From a virus (taxonomy: Duplodnaviria; Heunggongvirae; Uroviricota; Caudoviricetes): a DNA stretch of 64,000 nucleotides. The stretch's first letter is position 1. Every line of letters starts with the position of its first letter. The stretch is taken from the IMG/VR virus record IMGVR_UViG_3300018411_000017; one strand, 5' to 3'. Positions 3,210 through 54,444 of this stretch are shown here, one piece after another. The translations under genes were made by a program, and so were the position numbers. The notes beneath the pieces were generated by a model, which saw only the letters and a program-made list of their open reading frames with translations, searched no databases and was not told where the DNA came from.

Positions 3210-3475
3210 CTTTTTTCAATCCAAATATTAAAGTCATCATATATTTCACTCCAATAAGCATTTCCTTCTTTTGATTGTGTCCAAATAAATCCTTGGCGTG
3301 GTGTATGTACCGATTTGTTTTTATACTCTTTAAAAGATGTATAATTAACAAGATTATCGATAAAAATATCCAAGATTCCTTTCCAATTTAAAAACAATAT
3401 AAGATTGTCATCTAATTTATTTAGGGCTTCTTTGTCTAATCTAACTATTTTCATTAGTGCATTTCCATTTACCAT
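3206..3475 (-). CDS. family B small protein
   Basis: 89 aa; internal MKIVRL is the probable start; LFLNWKGILDIFIDN ... WTQSKEGNAYWSEI. Confidence 0.55.
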   Translation of the reverse strand: MVNGNALMKIVRLDKEALNKLDDNLILFLNWKGILDIFIDNLVNYTSFKEYKNKSVHTPRQGFIWTQSKEGNAYWSEIYDDFNIWIEKR

Positions 3476-3698
3476 ATTCTAAATCAATCTGGTCCCAATA
3501 TCTATAACCTTCTCTTGTTTCACTCCAAGTAAAAGCCTCAATTGGCCTAGATATACTTTTGTGTTTTGCTACAGAAAACACAGTATCACTAATAAAATTA
3601 TATATAAATATATCTAGTAATCCTTTCTCTTTCAAAAAAAGTATCAAATGATCTGATAACTTAGATAAGGCTTCTCCGTTTTGTTTTTTAATTTTCAT
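3441..3698 (-). CDS. family B small protein
   Basis: 85 aa; LFLKEKGLLDIFIYN ... FTWSETREGYRYWDQI. Confidence 0.55.
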   Translation of the reverse strand: MKIKKQNGEALSKLSDHLILFLKEKGLLDIFIYNFISDTVFSVAKHKSISRPIEAFTWSETREGYRYWDQIDLEYGKWKCTNENS

Positions 3699-4675: not shown

Positions 4676-4998
4676 AATAAATAAATTTAGTACCCCAAAT
4701 TGGATTCAAACCAATGTTTTAACCTTGAAGAGTTACGCCCTAGATCACTAGACGATTGGGGCTTATTAATAGTAGCAAGTATAAAATACACATAGGCCAA
4801 GTTAAAAGCGAAGACAAAGACCAGCTTCTAAACTAAGGCAAAGACAAAGTATTTTTTGTTTATTTTCTTAGAAGCTGTCGGTTTTTTGTTTGCTCATATA
4901 GCGTATATATTTTCGTCGCAAAACGCGTCGATCACGGTTTTGTATTTCATACTTGCTCAAAGTATAATATTAAATCTAATTTGATTTTAATTATACAC

Positions 4999-13582: not shown

Positions 13583-13686
13583 AGTGGAGAGAGTAGGAAT
13601 CGAACCTACATAAGTTGTCAAGCTTAATACATCTAGGGTTGACAATCCCATCATTGAGTATTTGCGTTTCCACTCCGCCATCTCCC
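13583..13686 (-). tRNA. atypical long tRNA-like gene (about 104 nt, class-II-like, anticodon unresolved)
   Basis: Minus strand: acceptor GGGGAGA/TCTCTCC (Ser-like), D-arm GCG-GAGTGGAAA-CGC, T-arm GTAGG-TTCGATT-CCTAC. The central region carries a perfect 7-bp hairpin TTGTCAA(17 nt)TTGACAA and is too long for a standard tRNA. Confidence 0.4.
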
Positions 13687-13761
13687 CTTTAAAACACTTT
13701 TTAATTATAATGGCAAAAAGTGCAAAATCCTTAGTCGAAAACGCAAAAGAAGGTTTATCGA

Positions 13762-15560: not shown

Positions 15561-15675
15561 AATATTTTGTTTTAGATAAAATAAATAAAGAGTGATACAT
15601 TGTGTACCACTCTTTTCACATATTAGTCTTCACAGATTTGTATGCGACTAAACTTATAAAATATGAAAAATATAG

Positions 15676-15747
15676 TACCGCGTAGAGGAGTCAAACCTCT
15701 TTTCTGCATTTGAGAGATGCAAGTCCTAATCGGTAGACGAACGCGGC
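15676..15747 (-). tRNA. tRNA, anticodon CTC (Glu-type), non-canonical D/T loops
   Basis: Manual fold on minus strand: acceptor GCCGCGT/ACGCGGT (6 WC pairs plus G-U); D-stem GTCT/GGAC with D-loop ACCGATTA (no GG); anticodon stem TGCAT/ATGCA with loop CTCTCAA; 4-nt variable loop; T-arm AGAGG-TTTGACT-CCTCT (U in place of C56). Confidence 0.55.
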
Positions 15748-19529: not shown

Positions 19530-19555
19530 AAGTGTTTATTTTATAAATTATTAAG

Positions 19556-19627
19556 TACTCAAACCAGGAGTTGAACCTGGGCTTCATGGATATAAGCCGT
19601 GCGTGCTAACCGTTACACCATTTGAGC
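19556..19627 (-). tRNA. tRNA, anticodon TAT (Ile-type, AUA decoder)
   Basis: Manual fold on minus strand: acceptor GCTCAAA/TTTGAGT; D-arm GTGT-AACGGTTA-GCAC; anticodon stem CACGG/CCATG (one C-A mismatch) with loop CTTATAT (U33, A37); 4-nt variable loop; T-arm CCAGG-TTCAACT-CCTGG. Confidence 0.55.
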
Positions 19628-48263: not shown

Positions 48264-49853
48264 ATGTATATGATTAATGAAAATGTATTATTTGGTTTAA
48301 ATGCCAAAAAAGAGATTAAGATTGGTATTGATATTGTATCAGATGCCGTTAAAAGCACTTTAGGGCCTCAAGGTAAGAACGTTATTATAGATAAATATAA
48401 TGGGTCTCCCCATATCACTAAAGACGGTGTAACGGTCGCTAAAGAGATTATATTAAAAGAAAAGTACCAATCTATGGGAGCTAGACTTATACAGGATGTA
48501 GCTGATAAAACCTGTCAAGAAGTCGGAGACGCTACAACTACATCAGTTGTTTTAGCTCAAGCTATTATAAAAGAGGGGTTGAATGTTTTGCAGAATGGAT
48601 CTGTTAATCCAACTGATCTAAGAAAAGGGATAGAAAAAGCGTCTCAAATAGTAACCGATTTTATATCTAAATCGTCTATCAGTTTAGATGATGATATTAA
48701 AATGGTAAAAGACGTAGCCACTATTTCTGCTAATAATGATGAATATCTTGGTGATATTATTAGCAATGCTATTTCAATGGTTGGTAAATATGGAGCAGTT
48801 AGAGTAGAGTCTTCTAATAATAATGAGACTTATTTAAAAACTGTTGAAGGTTTCAATATTAAAGAGCGAGGATATTTATCTCCTTATTTTATAACAAATG
48901 ACGCTACTCAGGAATGCATCCTAGAAGGAGTTGTTATTTATATCACTGACGATAAAATAGAAAAGTCTATTGATGCTATTTCTATATTAAACAACTTCGC
49001 TGCATTAATGAAAAACAACAAGAATATTAAATCATTATTAGTTATTGCTGAAGATGTAACTGGAGAAGCGTTTTCTACATTTGTCATTAACAAAGTACAG
49101 GGTGATCTTAACTTATGTGTTATAAAAGGTCCCGAATTTGGACAGAATAGGAAAGACTCCATGGAAGATATCGCTATTCTTACCAATGGAGGCGTTGATA
49201 GTATTATAAAGAAAGAAGGCAAATTTGGTTATGCTGAAAAGGTTATTGTCGGTAAGGATTCGACAATTGTATATTGTAAAAACCAAAACGATAGAGTTTT
49301 GCAACGGATTAATATTCTTAAAAGTTTAATTTCCGCTTCAAAGAATGAGTTTGATAGCAATCTATTAAAGGAAAGATTATCTCGTTTCTCTGATGGAGTG
49401 GCTACTATATATGTTGGGGCTAAAACGGAGATAGAGCTTAAAGAAAAAATGGATAGAATTGATGATGCCTTGTGTGCTACTCGTGCAGCATTAGAGGATG
49501 GAGTCGTTCCTGGCGGAGGCGTTGTGTTCTTAAAAGCTAAAGTGGAACTGTTAAAGAATAAGACTTTATTCTCTGATAACGAAAAAGCCGGATGGAATGT
49601 TATAAATGAAGCTTTACAAGCTCCTATTAGTCAACTTCTAATTAATGCTGATTTACCGGCTACTGAGATTGTAGAGGAAATACTTTCAAAAAGAACGCTT
49701 AATTATGGGTATAATGCCAAGAGTGGCAGATATGGAAATTTAATAAAGTTTGGAGTAATTGATCCTGCTAAGTCATTGAAGGTTTCATTCCAAAATGCAG
49801 TATCTATTTCTACTTTATTTTTAACTACCGAATGCGCTATAAGCTGTGTTTAA
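48264..49853 (+). CDS. groL: chaperonin GroEL (Cpn60) homolog
   Basis: 529 aa; AVKSTLGPQGKNVIIDKYNGSPHITKDGVTVAKEI closely parallels the GroEL N-terminus; GGG..VVPGGG-type C-terminal region. Confidence 0.9.
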   Translation: MYMINENVLFGLNAKKEIKIGIDIVSDAVKSTLGPQGKNVIIDKYNGSPHITKDGVTVAKEIILKEKYQSMGARLIQDVADKTCQEVGDATTTSVVLAQAIIKEGLNVLQNGSVNPTDLRKGIEKASQIVTDFISKSSISLDDDIKMVKDVATISANNDEYLGDIISNAISMVGKYGAVRVESSNNNETYLKTVEGFNIKERGYLSPYFITNDATQECILEGVVIYITDDKIEKSIDAISILNNFAALMKNNKNIKSLLVIAEDVTGEAFSTFVINKVQGDLNLCVIKGPEFGQNRKDSMEDIAILTNGGVDSIIKKEGKFGYAEKVIVGKDSTIVYCKNQNDRVLQRINILKSLISASKNEFDSNLLKERLSRFSDGVATIYVGAKTEIELKEKMDRIDDALCATRAALEDGVVPGGGVVFLKAKVELLKNKTLFSDNEKAGWNVINEALQAPISQLLINADLPATEIVEEILSKRTLNYGYNAKSGRYGNLIKFGVIDPAKSLKVSFQNAVSISTLFLTTECAISCV

Positions 49854-50082
49854 TATTATTAAAGGTCATATAAATGAAGTCTTAAAAAAAGAACAAGATT
49901 TATATTTATATAGAATAGGAATATGTAAAGAGTGTCCATTGTATACAAACACAAAAATAGGACATTTATGTGACAAAGCTAAGTATATCAATAAAGATGA
50001 TAAAATAATCCACGGTTGTGGATGTAGATTAGATGCTAAAGCAAGATTGTTTGATGAGAAATGTATATTAAATAAATGGTAA
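49846..50082 (+). CDS. small Cys-rich protein
   Basis: 78 aa; CKEC..C..HGCGC..C; sits between groEL and groES. Confidence 0.4.
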   Translation: MFNIIKGHINEVLKKEQDLYLYRIGICKECPLYTNTKIGHLCDKAKYINKDDKIIHGCGCRLDAKARLFDEKCILNKW

Positions 50083-50447
50083 TGATTATGAAAAATTTAG
50101 TAAAAGGTAAAAAGGTTACTCCATTGTATAACCACGTAGTAGTAAGAGATTTGAATGATAGCTCTAGATATTTTCCAGTTAAAAATGAAGCTGGTATCAT
50201 AAGAGCTAATGGATCATCTTTTGATGATGGAATTGAAGAGTACAATGTAGCTTCTAGTATAATGGGAATTGGAGAGGTTATTGCGGTTGGGCCAGAAGTT
50301 AAAATGGTTAAACCCGGAGATGAGGTTATGTATGATATCCGATCTATGTTGCCAATGCCAATTAAATTTGATGAAGATGAAGAACTTATGCCAAGGGTAA
50401 GACATATTAGTGAACAGAATATTAAATGTATATTTATTGATGAATAA
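50076..50447 (+). CDS. groS: co-chaperonin GroES (Cpn10)-like
   Basis: PLYNHVVVRDL ... GEVIAVGPEVKMVKPGDEV mirrors GroES (PL.DRVLVK ... GKVVAVGPG..VKVGDKV). Confidence 0.7.
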   Translation: MVMIMKNLVKGKKVTPLYNHVVVRDLNDSSRYFPVKNEAGIIRANGSSFDDGIEEYNVASSIMGIGEVIAVGPEVKMVKPGDEVMYDIRSMLPMPIKFDEDEELMPRVRHISEQNIKCIFIDE

Positions 50448-51234: not shown

Positions 51235-52128
51235 ATGAATGAATTTAAAGATTGGGACGTAAAGATTGATGATCAGATAGACTTTTTTGACCCTAGTCTA
51301 TCTTATGAATTAACTGGGTATAGACCAATAACAGAAACGGAAGGATTAGACTTTGACCCTTCATGGTTTATGGAGGTTGTTGATTATAAAAATAAAAAAG
51401 GAGTACATTGTCCTAACCCTCCTGGCTCTTATGCTTTTAAAAACTTTTGGCTTGGAGAATATGATAAATGCAAAAATGGCTATAGCGTTAACGGTTATAG
51501 GATAACAGGCCATCATTATTTCTTTTTAAACTTTTATAAGCTTCTTAATGCGAATAATGTTGGCAAAGCAGGTTCTGGCCGTGAATATAGCAATCCTAAT
51601 TTTTGGGCTAAACACTATGAGTATTTTCATTATTTAGAAATGTGCGAATTGTTAGAAAAAGATGCTTGCGCTCTGAAAAGTCGTGGAGTCGGTTTTTCGG
51701 AGATTGGAGCTAGCATAGGGGCCTGCACATACTCAGTTGTGCAAAACTCAAAAACAATGTATATTGCCTCTGCTGAGAATTACTTATTGAAAAATGGTGT
51801 ATTACAGAAAGTATGGGATTGCCTTGAAACTCTTAACCAAGAAACAGAAGGAGGCTTAAGGCATTTGACGCAAAAGAAAAAAGAGCCAATGTGGAGAAGA
51901 GCTTCTGTGCTAGATAAACAAGGTCAGGAGTCTGGATGGATGTCTGAGGTATTTGGACAGGTTGTAGACAATTCAAGAAAATTAAGAGGTGTTCGTTTGG
52001 AATATTTACTATTCGAAGAATCAGGTTCTTTTAATGGATTAGTCACTGTGTATAATAAATCTGAAGCGCTAGTAAATTTGCTTGGGAAAAAGATCGGAAC
52101 AAGAATACTCTGGGGAACCGGTGAATAA
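51235..52128 (+). CDS. terL: terminase large subunit, N-terminal ATPase segment (upstream part of split gene)
   Basis: Walker-A-like KSRGVGFSEIGAS and Walker-B-like LEYLLFEESGS; ends with a stop just before the 1.1 kb insert. Confidence 0.6.
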   Translation: MNEFKDWDVKIDDQIDFFDPSLSYELTGYRPITETEGLDFDPSWFMEVVDYKNKKGVHCPNPPGSYAFKNFWLGEYDKCKNGYSVNGYRITGHHYFFLNFYKLLNANNVGKAGSGREYSNPNFWAKHYEYFHYLEMCELLEKDACALKSRGVGFSEIGASIGACTYSVVQNSKTMYIASAENYLLKNGVLQKVWDCLETLNQETEGGLRHLTQKKKEPMWRRASVLDKQGQESGWMSEVFGQVVDNSRKLRGVRLEYLLFEESGSFNGLVTVYNKSEALVNLLGKKIGTRILWGTGE

Positions 52129-52169
52129 CATTTTCTCCACCTGTTTGTTTTTTTTTATAATATTTTTTG

Positions 52170-52177
52170 TATATTTG
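52170..52177 (+). promoter_or_regulatory. Bacteroidetes-type -7 promoter element (TATATTTG) for the homing endonuclease
   Basis: 15 bp upstream of the ATG at 52192. Confidence 0.4.
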
Positions 52178-52191
52178 CATCTTAATATTAA

Positions 52192-53052
52192 ATGCGTAAT
52201 AAAATGGAAAATGTACAAAAACTGGAGATGGCTTTAATTGCGGCTGAAGAATATATAAATTCTAAAAAAGGAAGCATTAGTCTTACTCAATTGCAAAACA
52301 AATATGGTGTTAGAAGACAAGTTATTTCTAAAATTTTAAAAAATAAAGGAATTGAAGTTATAAATTATCAAAATCTGTCAAGAATAAATGAAAATATTTT
52401 TGACAATATTGATACAGAAGAAAAAGCCTATTGGCTTGGATTCATATATGCGGATGGATGTATATCCAATAATGGATATCGCTTTGAAGTTAGGTTGTCA
52501 AAAAAAGATGAAGATCATTTAATGAAATTGACTAGTTTTTTTAATGATGAAGGCAATTATAGATATGCAGAATCAAATGGGCATCAAGCTGTTCATTATT
52601 CTGTAAGAAATAAGCATTTGTGGGAAACATTAAATAATTATGGATGTACCCCAAGAAAGTCATTAACTGTCGTATTCCCTGATGAATCTATATTCTCAAG
52701 AAAAGAATTTATAAAAGACTTTATTCGAGGATATTGCGATGGGGATGGTTCATTAGGTGTTTATTTAGTTAAAAATAAAAATAGGATGCTAGAGCATTTA
52801 AGCTTTTGTGGTTCTGAAATGTTTTTAAACAAAATGGATGAATATCTTCCACGTCATTCTTCTGTATATGAAAAGAAAGACAATAAAATACATGTGATAA
52901 AATATTCAGCTTTTAAGGCAAGACTAAACGCTAGATTTATATACGAAAATTCCAATATTTACATGAATAGGAAATATAATGTTTTTGAAAATTTTTGCCG
53001 TCTTGAATTGGAAAATTCAAGATTACGACAGAGCAAAAACGGTGAAAGCTGA
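52192..53052 (+). CDS. LAGLIDADG homing endonuclease (double-motif) with N-terminal HTH
   Basis: KAYWLGFIYADGCIS (motif 1) and FIRGYCDGDGSLG (motif 2). Confidence 0.8.
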   Translation: MRNKMENVQKLEMALIAAEEYINSKKGSISLTQLQNKYGVRRQVISKILKNKGIEVINYQNLSRINENIFDNIDTEEKAYWLGFIYADGCISNNGYRFEVRLSKKDEDHLMKLTSFFNDEGNYRYAESNGHQAVHYSVRNKHLWETLNNYGCTPRKSLTVVFPDESIFSRKEFIKDFIRGYCDGDGSLGVYLVKNKNRMLEHLSFCGSEMFLNKMDEYLPRHSSVYEKKDNKIHVIKYSAFKARLNARFIYENSNIYMNRKYNVFENFCRLELENSRLRQSKNGES

Positions 53053-53235
53053 GATGCTGATACCGTGCTAAATCTTTCTATTTCGAAAGGAGAAAGATCA
53101 GTGTAACGCATAGATGCTGAATAAATATAATGCATCCACGAGTGCTCTGCACCCAGGACGGGTGAAAATATATGCTGAACTTATATGAATTCAAATATAA
53201 GAACATATGGATAAAAAGCCATATGGGTAACACAA

Positions 53236-54444
53236 TTGGGAGACTCGGGACCGGCCTTGGCGGGTCTTGAAAAAATATTTTTAAATCCTCAAAACTTTAA
53301 CATACTCCCTTATTATCATAATCATTTTGAGAATGGAGAGTATAGATTAACTGGATTTTTTATTCCTGCTTATAGCTGTCTACCTCCTTTAATGGATAGT
53401 AGAGGCGTTACTAATCAGGAAAAAGCTAAAGAGCATTATAATAAGATTAGAGCTCAAAAAGTAAGCACACCACAAAACTGGCTAGAATATTGTTCTGAGT
53501 TTTGTTTTTATCCGGAAGAGGCATTGTCTAAACAAGGAGAGAATCAATTTGATCAGGTAAAAATAACAGAACAGATAACAGAAGTTAAGATATTAAAAAA
53601 TACACCAAAAACGTTAAAGGTAGGGAAACTGACATGGAATTATAAAGATAATTCTGAAGAGATAATCGGAGTTACATTTAGACCTGATCCTAGTGGTAAT
53701 ATCATTGTATTAGAGGAGCCATTAACAGATGACATAGGAAAACCTTTTGAAGGGTTGTATGTCGGAGGAATCGACTCTATTGACCACGCAGAAGGAGACT
53801 CCGTTGTAGGTTCTGATGGTTCTAAATTTGCTATAACAATTAAGAAAAGGACATTTGGTAATGAAGGCAACAAGTATGTTTGTATGTATATAGAAAGACC
53901 AAAGGATGTAAGAACAGCGTACGAAAATGCAGCTAAAATATTATGGTGGTATGGATGTAAAGCAAACTTAGAAGATACTAAGATCGGATTTAGAATGTAT
54001 TTACAAGAGCGAAAATTACTTTATAAAATGTTAATGAAAAGACCTGTTTCAGCTCAATCATCTATCAAGCGTTCTTCTACATTATGGGGTACTCCAGGGT
54101 CTGAGAAGATGATACAACACGGATTAGATCTCGTTGCTCAATATGTTGATGACTTTTATTTTAATATATGGTTTATAGATATGTTAGAGCAATTACAAAA
54201 GTTTTCATATGAAGCAAAAGGTCGATTTGATATTATATTGGCTATGGTTTATACGGAAATAGCAGATGAAGATATGATGGGAATTGTAGTTAAAAAAGAT
54301 AATCCGATGCAATCAGACTGGGAAGAGTATGGCGAGATTGGTTGGTTTACAGATAGTAGAGGTTATAAATATTTTGGCTACGAAAAGCAATATGACAATT
54401 ACTCAAGCGAACGAAATCCGAGAATTCATTCTAACATATTTTAG
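53236..54444 (+). CDS. terL: terminase large subunit, C-terminal nuclease segment (downstream part of split gene)
   Basis: Frame is open from 53215; the first possible start is TTG at 53236 and there is no in-frame ATG; LYVGGIDSIDHAEGDS is an RNase-H-like nuclease Asp motif. Confidence 0.6.
   Translation: MGDSGPALAGLEKIFLNPQNFNILPYYHNHFENGEYRLTGFFIPAYSCLPPLMDSRGVTNQEKAKEHYNKIRAQKVSTPQNWLEYCSEFCFYPEEALSKQGENQFDQVKITEQITEVKILKNTPKTLKVGKLTWNYKDNSEEIIGVTFRPDPSGNIIVLEEPLTDDIGKPFEGLYVGGIDSIDHAEGDSVVGSDGSKFAITIKKRTFGNEGNKYVCMYIERPKDVRTAYENAAKILWWYGCKANLEDTKIGFRMYLQERKLLYKMLMKRPVSAQSSIKRSSTLWGTPGSEKMIQHGLDLVAQYVDDFYFNIWFIDMLEQLQKFSYEAKGRFDIILAMVYTEIADEDMMGIVVKKDNPMQSDWEEYGEIGWFTDSRGYKYFGYEKQYDNYSSERNPRIHSNIF

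Follow-up and report, generated by a model that had tools for sequence, protein, structure and literature searches.

The introns of phage T4 in td, nrdB and sunY are compact IA-type elements with extra helices of the P7.1/P7.2 type; a peripheral loop holds their endonuclease ORF, which has a promoter of its own, and they are inserted where essential genes encode conserved catalytic regions. Their endonucleases are GIY-YIG or HNH enzymes encoded in P6a or P9.1 loops, whereas the locus described here, an insert in the terminase large subunit gene (terL), encodes its LAGLIDADG enzyme within the P1 loop, in a reading frame that overlaps the RNA from the guide sequence to P5. A LAGLIDADG gene in the P1 loop is known from fungal mitochondrial IA1-like introns (PMC4964425), which resemble our element in this placement and in being of IA type; the host there is organellar, and that report offers no evidence of a systematic overlap between ORF and core, which here is seen in 78 of 80 loci. 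The Bacillus cereus-group nrdF intron (PMC2248736) is likewise a group IA intron of bacterial or phage type that has R and S elements, P7.1/P7.2 and P9.1 and can carry an endonuclease ORF, but it differs in its GIY-YIG endonuclease, its host gene and the position of its ORF.

In gut phages, group I introns are known from the large crAss-like genomes of 145-192 kb described by Yutin et al. 2021 (PMC7886860), where as many as 14 of them interrupt core genes of a single Zeta-group genome and where intron ORFs of LAGLIDADG type occur. Those introns were found through their endonuclease domains, inteins were typical of Delta-group TerL, and RNA structure, exact junctions and ORF-core overlap, all given below, are not described there. 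The Jug (jumbo gut) phages of Bacteroides/Phocaeicola, with genomes of 360-402 kb, possess an intron-split terL, and further essential genes of theirs are interrupted by group I introns as well, with splicing confirmed by metatranscriptome reads; these introns, found with subtype-specific covariance models, have a mean length of ~206 nt and mostly lack an ORF, and the homing endonucleases of these phages include LAGLIDADG enzymes (PMC12880540). The present insert shares with the Jug terL introns its group I type, its location in terL, an essential gene, and a gut Bacteroidota phage as host, but it is 1116 nt long, holds an endonuclease in its P1 loop, interrupts a crAss-like TerL and belongs to another phage clade. 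It is a further instance of introns in terL and other core genes, already published for crAss-like and Jug phages, and the picture of introns in Bacteroidota phages is unchanged by it; the remark in the first-pass annotation that such introns are rarely documented is outdated by these two reports.

In the window, a 64,000-nt stretch (IMG/VR record IMGVR_UViG_3300018411_000017), terL is interrupted: its first part spans 51235-52122 and its second 53239-54444, with an insert at 52123-53238 between them. All features given here lie on the plus strand. We consider the insert to be, very probably, a mobile group I intron of IA type in the terL of a distant crAss-like gut phage. The N-half ORF (51235-52128, 297 aa, stop TAA at 52126-52128) matches positions 79-333 of the PHROG profile phrog_6681 (terminase large subunit; E 3e-30) and the C half matches positions 341-731 (E 4e-40), the two being adjoining parts of one TerL profile. 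Both this ORF and a double-motif LAGLIDADG ORF are as the first-pass annotation had described them. It had also called for uninterrupted terL genes in related phages and for an alignment of the joined exon translation; such genes were found, and the alignment with their products fixed the junction. Across the site uninterrupted relatives read GTRxxWGTG-GD-xGPxLAGLE, and the window reads WGTG followed by E and a stop on one side and QL followed by GDSGPALAGLE on the other. Exon 1 (51235-52122), the ATPase part, terminates in GTRILWGTG with the final codon GGT, and exon 2 (53239-54444), the nuclease part, starts with GDSGPALAGLE, both assigned by phrog_6681 and by this alignment. The GGT/GGA junction restores the conserved WGTG/GDSGP with no residue lost or gained; in the predicted spliced terL, CTGGGGAACCGGT is joined to GGAGACTCGGGACC at 52122/53239, and an intron-less site, exemplified by L003, reads TGGGGAACTGGAGGTGATGTTGG.

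The joined 697-aa protein is collinear with its uninterrupted relatives and is 70% identical to the 691-aa P0001 across 98% of its length, while identity to crAss-like terminases is 26-27%. The contigs that carry TerL relatives measure 130-185 kb, matching the 145-192 kb genomes of PMC7886860. Megablast with the locus found no match among 50,697 phage records, and this phage is therefore absent from that collection. The WGTGGD site may be an ATPase motif, a label that we only infer because PDB searches were unhelpful, the sequence search with TerL having returned nothing useful.

The intron (52123-53238, 1116 nt) is delimited by protein alignment, by a jump in sequence identity and by covariation; it begins after U52122 and ends in G53238, its last base and omega-G. 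The 5' splice site lies within the P1 5' strand CGGU/GAA (52119-52125), which forms 7/7 pairs with 52994-53000 and places a U52122.G52997 wobble at the cleavage position inside the 7-bp helix. Across five loci that share this terL site the U.G is invariant, and the -4 pair varies as C-G, U.G, U-A or G-C, so that P1 is supported by covariation. The internal guide sequence (52992-53000), which lies within endonuclease codons F-C-R, comprises the P1 3' strand (52994-53000) and a P10 partner (52992-52996) that could pair with 53239-53243, although all 5 bp of this possible P10 are weak G.U and A-U pairs. P1 must close across an 867-nt loop. Candidate P1 helices that use the insert's 5' segment, one pairing UUCUCCA with UGGGGAA and the other ACCUGU with ACCGGU, were rejected because they leave the splice site unpaired or lack the U.G, and because family copies have the guide sequence immediately 5' of P2. 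A start farther upstream was considered as well, since 52113-52127 (GGGGAACCGGTGAAT) resembles the J3/4-P4 motif of the family, and was rejected on two grounds: the real motif occupies 53033-53047, and homology at the protein level continues to 52122.

Downstream of the guide sequence, a complete group I core was identified. The P2 hairpin (53002-53021), capped by a GGAA (GNRA) loop, has 8/8 pairs covarying in the family and is found in the minimum free energy (MFE) fold. P3 pairs CAGAGC (53029-53034) with GCUCUG (53144-53149), is 100% paired with 6/6 pairs covarying, and crosses P7 to form a pseudoknot. P4 (53039-43/53062-66) surrounds P5 (53047-49/53056-58) within 53039-53066, supported by covariation, and the endonuclease stop TGA (53050-52) sits in the P5 loop. 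The P6 hairpin (53067-53102) covaries at 9/11 pairs. J6/7 and the P7 5' strand, GUAAC GCAUA (53103-53112), are family-invariant and align with the Rfam R element; the strand pairs with 53171-53175, and in the protein-ascertained set the middle pair covaries, being AU in 16 sequences and GC in 55. J8/7 and the P7 3' strand, GAAAAUA UAUGC UGAA (53165-53179), align with the Rfam S element and are backed by covariation, as is the P8 hairpin (53150-53164), which also appears in the MFE fold. The region 53180-53225 contains P9 (53180-85/53196-201) and P9.1 (53204-10/53219-25), the latter with 7/7 pairs covarying. Between the P7 5' and P3 3' strands lies the hairpin P7.1, GAUGC...GCAUC (53113-53136), whose variable pairs covary at 4/4; this extra helix is a 35-nt insertion relative to RF00028 in the Rfam alignment and occupies the position that defines subgroup IA.

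These assignments were further strengthened across the family. Among 24 sequences, 95.2% of cells are paired, against 72.5% in shuffled and 32-42% in slid controls, and compensatory changes occur in 41 of 61 pairs; the fold was confirmed on 73 sequences gathered through the endonuclease protein rather than the RNA. In the MFE fold of 52990-53240 (z = -5.5), nine helices reappear. A group I intron of IA type is strongly supported by these observations. Three copies of GATGCTGA had been noticed downstream of the endonuclease ORF; the string is exact only twice in the insert (53053 and 53113), the third occurrence (53172) being TATGCTGA, and these strings are not repeats but strands of the helices P5, P7.1 and P7.

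The standard covariance model does not recover this structure. RF00028, with a gathering score of 50 bits, gave no intron match on the window at the gathering threshold and none over 51900-53500 at E <= 10. Family member L081, however, is matched over the full length of the same model (56 bits, E 1e-13), with an alignment that agrees with the helix labels assigned by covariation. L081 is the one detected among six compact family members, the other five being missed, and the family's own profile finds the window copy at E 6e-59. Because RF00028 passes on L081, we treat the empty result on the window as a failure of sensitivity. The first-pass annotation had proposed this very search of the insert and would have taken a missing intron core as evidence against an intron, a rule under which the empty result would have counted wrongly. 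An nhmmer scan of the window found no further copies of the intron family and none of a second intron type known from L001/L002.

The ORF in the P1 loop (52192-53052, 286 aa; the start common with L071 is ATG 52204) encodes a LAGLIDADG homing endonuclease, matching Pfam LAGLIDADG_3 (PF14528) at 25.4 bits (cut-off 22.5) and phrog_4645 at E 9e-58, with the double motif LGFIYADG (aa 82) and GYCDGDG (aa 180). A PDB sequence search returned only a weak match to 2dch (E 0.4). Comparison with the L071 orthologue (dN/dS 0.15, no indels) points to purifying selection on this ORF. Upstream lies TATATTTG (52170-52177), which resembles a Bacteroidota -7-type promoter (TAnnTTTG); the related endonuclease ORFs of L111, L113 and L030 are likewise preceded by TATATTTGCA, and L062 has TATCTTTGCAT.

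The final ~20 codons of the endonuclease have a second role as guide sequence, P2, P3, P4 and P5, and in 78 of 80 related loci the same core follows the endonuclease and overlaps the end of its ORF. Ribosomes translating this ORF, whose codons extend across the guide sequence as far as P5, could disturb folding. A comparable conflict between translation and splicing has been described for I-TevI and the T4 td intron. Since a ribosome finishing the endonuclease would have to unwind the substrate-binding and core helices, it is conceivable that endonuclease translation and terL splicing exclude each other on each transcript and act as a timer for TerL, a speculation that we regard as doubtful. 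If it were true, retargeting of the intron to a new site would require recoding of the endonuclease tail.

The insert belongs to a large mobile family. A 22-mer at 53164-53185 has 106 exact matches in IMG/VR and 68 variants, set in ~35 different downstream (insertion) contexts, the endonuclease has 438 relatives, and the hundreds of family copies carry endonuclease ORFs in different loops. Mobility is evident in the identity profile: when the window is compared with L071, identity is 63% and 68% over the two exons, rises to 91-99% over the insert and reaches 99.2% over its core, with the jump falling at the intron boundaries 52123/53238.

Taken as a mechanism, transcription of terL would pass through the insert, and P1 would form between the exon end CGGU/GAA and the guide sequence ~870 nt downstream, the P3-P9 core being the last ~210 nt. 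The intron would then remove itself in a two-step, guanosine-initiated reaction that joins GGT (52122) to GGA (53239), and the predicted splicing of terL would yield the 697-aa TerL with its conserved WGTGGDSGP. The endonuclease would probably be made from its own putative TAnnTTTG promoter; presumed active, it should, in co-infected cells, cleave terL alleles that lack the intron at this site, so that the intron is copied in (homing), an activity to which purifying selection on the ORF and the identity profile lend indirect support.

The first-pass annotation had left the choice between an intron and a split gene, of which the group I intron is strongly supported and the split into two polypeptides is not. 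The latter reading, which we judge very improbable, holds that a free-standing endonuclease cassette has divided the gene, that the halves are made as separate polypeptides, with TTG 53236 starting the C half, and that these assemble afterwards. A split of this type has been reported for nrdA of phage Aeh1, divided by mobE; a possible stop (TAA 52126) and start (TTG 53236) lie exactly at the junction, and the window is without an intron match in Rfam. Against this, the insert has a complete group I core backed by covariation, the pairings at its splice sites are correct, and the core is its most conserved part (that 99.2% against L071), which is unexpected for a passive spacer. The C-half frame is indeed open from 53215 to 54444 with TTG 53236 as its first candidate start and no earlier in-frame ATG, as had been noted, but 53215-53238, that TTG included, is intron sequence outside the terL coding region; the TTG is the end of a conserved AAUUG 3' terminus common to family copies in unrelated genes.

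That the element is instead a decayed, non-splicing intron in a terL pseudogene of a defective or mis-assembled genome is very unlikely, although splicing is here a prediction from sequence and the long P1 loop and ORF-core overlap could impede folding. TerL is essential in tailed phages, the window copy has lost none of its helices, the arrangement recurs in the independent assemblies L071/L110, L111, L112 and L113, and both exons, like the endonuclease, are open and under purifying selection.

An intein or a group II intron is extremely unlikely. For an intein it might be argued that the terL halves and the endonuclease ORF share one frame, and that some relatives' TerLs contain inteins (P0030, P0032 and P0081, with PF14890); the shared frame, however, follows from the insert length of 1116 = 3 x 372 nt, in-frame stops occur at 52126 and at several further positions between the pieces, and a Pfam search found no Hint/intein domain. 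For group II, the window has no match to RF00029, no reverse transcriptase is present, and the ORF encodes a LAGLIDADG enzyme. Read-through of stop codons is excluded by the multiple TAA/TGA stops and by the domain content.

With the group I intron as the preferred reading, the locus illustrates how gene callers render an essential terL as two orphan fragments and an endonuclease while the intron escapes the standard Rfam model. The junction at 52122/53239, together with the structural alignment of the family, allows correct reassembly of terL and of many other genes of crAss-like gut phages, and the family constitutes an abundant and compact natural set for studying the retargeting of introns and their endonucleases.

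The three-part layout described in the first-pass annotation is present, with ORFs and profile matches in agreement: an N-terminal half of terL (51235..52128, + strand, 297 aa), a LAGLIDADG ORF (52192..53052, +, 286 aa), and a C-terminal half (53236..54444, +), which starts at TTG in a frame open from 53215. The first and third ORFs match positions 79-333 and 341-731 of phrog_6681 (PHROG, terminase large subunit) and therefore represent adjoining stretches of a single TerL, which together leave about 7 profile positions uncovered. A protein search returned 1930 TerL relatives at E <= 1e-10, on contigs of up to ~180 kb; the majority, at 680-740 aa, carry the uninterrupted terL that the annotation had proposed seeking in related phages. 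In the protein alignment these read ...GTRxxWGTG-GD-xGPxLAGLE..., where the window has ...GTRILWGTG, E and a stop, then ...Q-L and GDSGPALAGLE. Joining GGT (52120-52122) to GGA (53239-53241) regains the conserved TerL sequence, neither losing nor adding a residue, and sets the insert at 1116 nt (52123-53238), preceded by U and ending in G; all three ORFs share one frame because this length is a multiple of three. The insertion site, between WGTG and GD, follows the Walker-B-like LLFEESG and may be an ATPase coupling motif; a sequence search detected no solved relative of this TerL.

Reading the order of elements off related copies in IMG/VR yielded exon-U, P1 loop, guide sequence, P2 (GNRA loop), P3, AAAA, P4 ((A/U)CGGU), GAA, P5, P4' (ACCG(A/U)), P6, GUAAC-GCAUA (P7), P7.1, CCACGAGU, P3', P8, GAAAAUA-UAUGC (P7'), P9, P9.1, and GAUAACAnAAUUG before the exon, with P3 crossing P7 as the group I pseudoknot. 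Across 24 aligned compact copies, 95.2% of cells were paired; shuffling the columns lowered this to 72.5% and sliding the partners to 32-42%. Of the 61 pairs, 41 had compensatory changes, and in the long-range P3, which was 100% paired, every pair covaried (6/6). P7 and P9 were invariant in this set, in part because the 22-mer used in the search (53164-53185) covers both. A further set, comprising 73 distinct sequences ascertained through the endonuclease protein instead, revealed covariation in P7 (middle pair A-U in 16, G-C in 55) and confirmed the remaining helices. The minimum free energy fold of 52990-53240 alone recovered P2, P3, P4, P5, P6, P7.1, P8, P9, and P9.1 (z = -5.5; 0/200 shuffles fold as well). 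The string GATGCTGA, previously counted three times downstream of the endonuclease ORF, occurs exactly twice in the insert (53053 and 53113), the third instance (53172) being a 7/8 copy.

The RF00028 search proposed earlier did not report the window copy. The same model matched a family copy on contig L081 at full length (56 bits, gathering score 50, E 1e-13) and missed five other compact copies, so the negative result probably reflects a sensitivity limit of the model, worsened by the 867-nt P1 loop. The L081 alignment matches our labels for P1 to P6 and places the R element on GUGUAACGCAUA and the S element on GAAAAUAUAUGCU, with a 35-nt insertion at P7.1 followed by P3', P8, the S element, and P9. 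A helix between P7 and P3' is an IA-type feature; the group IA nrdF intron has P7.1/P7.2 (PMC2248736), comparable to the P7.1 described here.

Immediately 5' of P2, the position it also takes in ORF-less copies, is the guide sequence UUUGCCG (52994-53000), which pairs 7/7 with CGGU|GAA (52119-52125) and puts U52122.G52997 at the cleavage site; the entire endonuclease ORF is thus inside the P1 loop. A weak P10 is possible between the opening five bases of the 3' exon and 52992-52996. Comparison of five loci with the endonuclease-intron unit at this terL site (endonucleases 46-92% identical) lends P1 independent support: the exon -4 to guide pair is C-G, U.G, U-A, or G-C, the intron +2 pair changes from A-U to G-C in two loci (L111 and L112), and the cleavage-site U.G is invariant. 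The last ~20 endonuclease codons double as ribozyme sequence, from the guide through P2, P3, and P4 to half of P5, with the J3/4-P4 motif GCAAAAACGGTGAAA (53033-53047) in the final codons and the stop codon within the P5 loop. Among the 80 best endonuclease-relative loci, 78 have this core on the strand of the ORF, beginning 35-147 nt ahead of its stop, making the overlap a conserved design.

Fold, junction, and mobility signature thus agree with the self-splicing option of the first-pass annotation, and we consider it very probable that the insert represents a group I intron of the IA type, which would splice itself out of the terL transcript, while its LAGLIDADG enzyme would drive homing into intron-less terL alleles. 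Three rivals are disfavoured: the annotation's other option, a terL truly split into two separately translated proteins; a dead intron; and an intein or group II intron. Against them stand a core that is intact and highly conserved, the in-frame stops, and the domain content.

The middle ORF scores above the Pfam LAGLIDADG_3 cut-off, matches phrog_4645 (endonuclease, E 9e-58), and carries two motifs, LGFIYADG and GYCDGDG; it has 438 relatives in IMG/VR, and a PDB sequence search found no close solved structure. Against its orthologue in L071, a diverged phage, it shows no indels and a dN/dS of 0.15, evidence of selection on the ORF, with the 20 ribozyme-overlapping codons identical; the first ATG is absent there, so the start common to both is ATG 52204. 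The Bacteroidetes-type element noted before the ORF was found as TATATTTG (TAnnTTTG) at 52170, a putative promoter only, given 58 TAnnTTTG occurrences on this strand of the window. TATATTTGCA also precedes related ORFs in L111, L113, and L030 (L062 has TATCTTTGCAT), a recurrence that fits a Bacteroidota -7 element.

The 22-mer has 106 exact matches in IMG/VR. They represent 68 sequence variants, and the sequence downstream of them falls into ~35 unrelated contexts, among them other TerL sites as well as RNR-like and tail genes. L071 holds the element at the identical terL site: exon identities are 63% and 68%, whereas the insert is 91% (5' part), 92.6% (ORF), and 99.2% (core) identical, switching at the predicted junctions, a pattern characteristic of a discrete element that has moved laterally. 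A terL fragment of a relative (L002) has the 3' ~77 nt of the element at another terL site, before GFSEIGAS. This second family site, between PRGV and G(F/W)SE in a P-loop-like region, is occupied in L113, L002, L088, L018, and L004; the L113 terL is broken into three exons by two family introns (family copies at 1738-2005 and 3313-3569), one ORF-less and one with the endonuclease. The inserted ORF follows P4/P5 in L030, L038, L062, and L087 and occupies a still further downstream loop in L022 and L025, so endonuclease genes appear to have colonised one ribozyme scaffold several times.

A second insert type, unrelated to the family (~250 nt, ORF-less, containing AAGATATAGTC and ending ...CTTACCG), lies between ILWG and TGGD in L001 (1-70) and L002 (503-755), 6 nt ahead of the site that the intron occupies in the window, and had no Rfam match at E <= 1. 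Exon 2 of L001 matches that of the window at 96.7% identity, yet L001 carries this type instead, placing two different introns at near-adjacent sites in near-identical phages; the adjoining exon sequence differs sharply, as co-conversion would produce. Contigs with family copies also hold other-type RF00028 introns (L016, 9234-9510, +, 79 bits; L037, 11089-11320, -, 37 bits), fitting the high intron density reported for such phages. Inteins (PF14890, with or without PF14528) occur in TerL relatives P0030, P0032, and P0081 (992-1081 aa), in place of introns or alongside them. In L112 (~2405-2420), TGA stands at the conserved Trp of WGTG (gtagtt-tga-ggaactggt), which suggests TGA-to-Trp recoding, as reported for some crAss-like groups.

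Elsewhere in the window, the only tRNA called by both Rfam and ARAGORN is tRNA-Ile(tat) (19555-19627). The two disagree at 4691-4762 (-, Rfam only) and at tRNA-Glu(ctc) (15675-15747, -, ARAGORN only, outside the Rfam gathering list). A 103-nt tRNA-like gene (13585-13687, -, Rfam 44.4 bits, no ARAGORN call) resembles a tRNA with a long variable arm whose anticodon may be CAA; its ~20-nt extra hairpin (GGGAUUGUCAACCC) follows the anticodon, at the point in the anticodon loop where tRNA introns canonically lie, and is far too short for a group I intron.

The window TerL shares 26-27% identity with terminases of crAss-like phages and 41% with unannotated contigs of human-gut phages. Neighbouring genes encode portal, the phage's own GroEL (529 aa, phrog_5725, E 6e-130), and a weak GroES-like match (123 aa); the last two (48264-50447, +) lie directly upstream of the packaging module. 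CrAss-like Zeta-group genomes of 145-192 kb contain up to 14 group I introns with LAGLIDADG intron ORFs (Yutin et al. 2021, PMC7886860), Jug-phage terL is split by group I introns whose splicing is verified by metatranscriptomes (PMC12880540), and IA-type introns with a LAGLIDADG gene inside the P1 loop are known from fungal mitochondria (PMC4964425); the intron is therefore of a kind already known. What goes beyond the literature consulted is how poorly the standard Rfam model detects this abundant family, together with the exact junction, the family-level structure, and the conserved ORF-core overlap.
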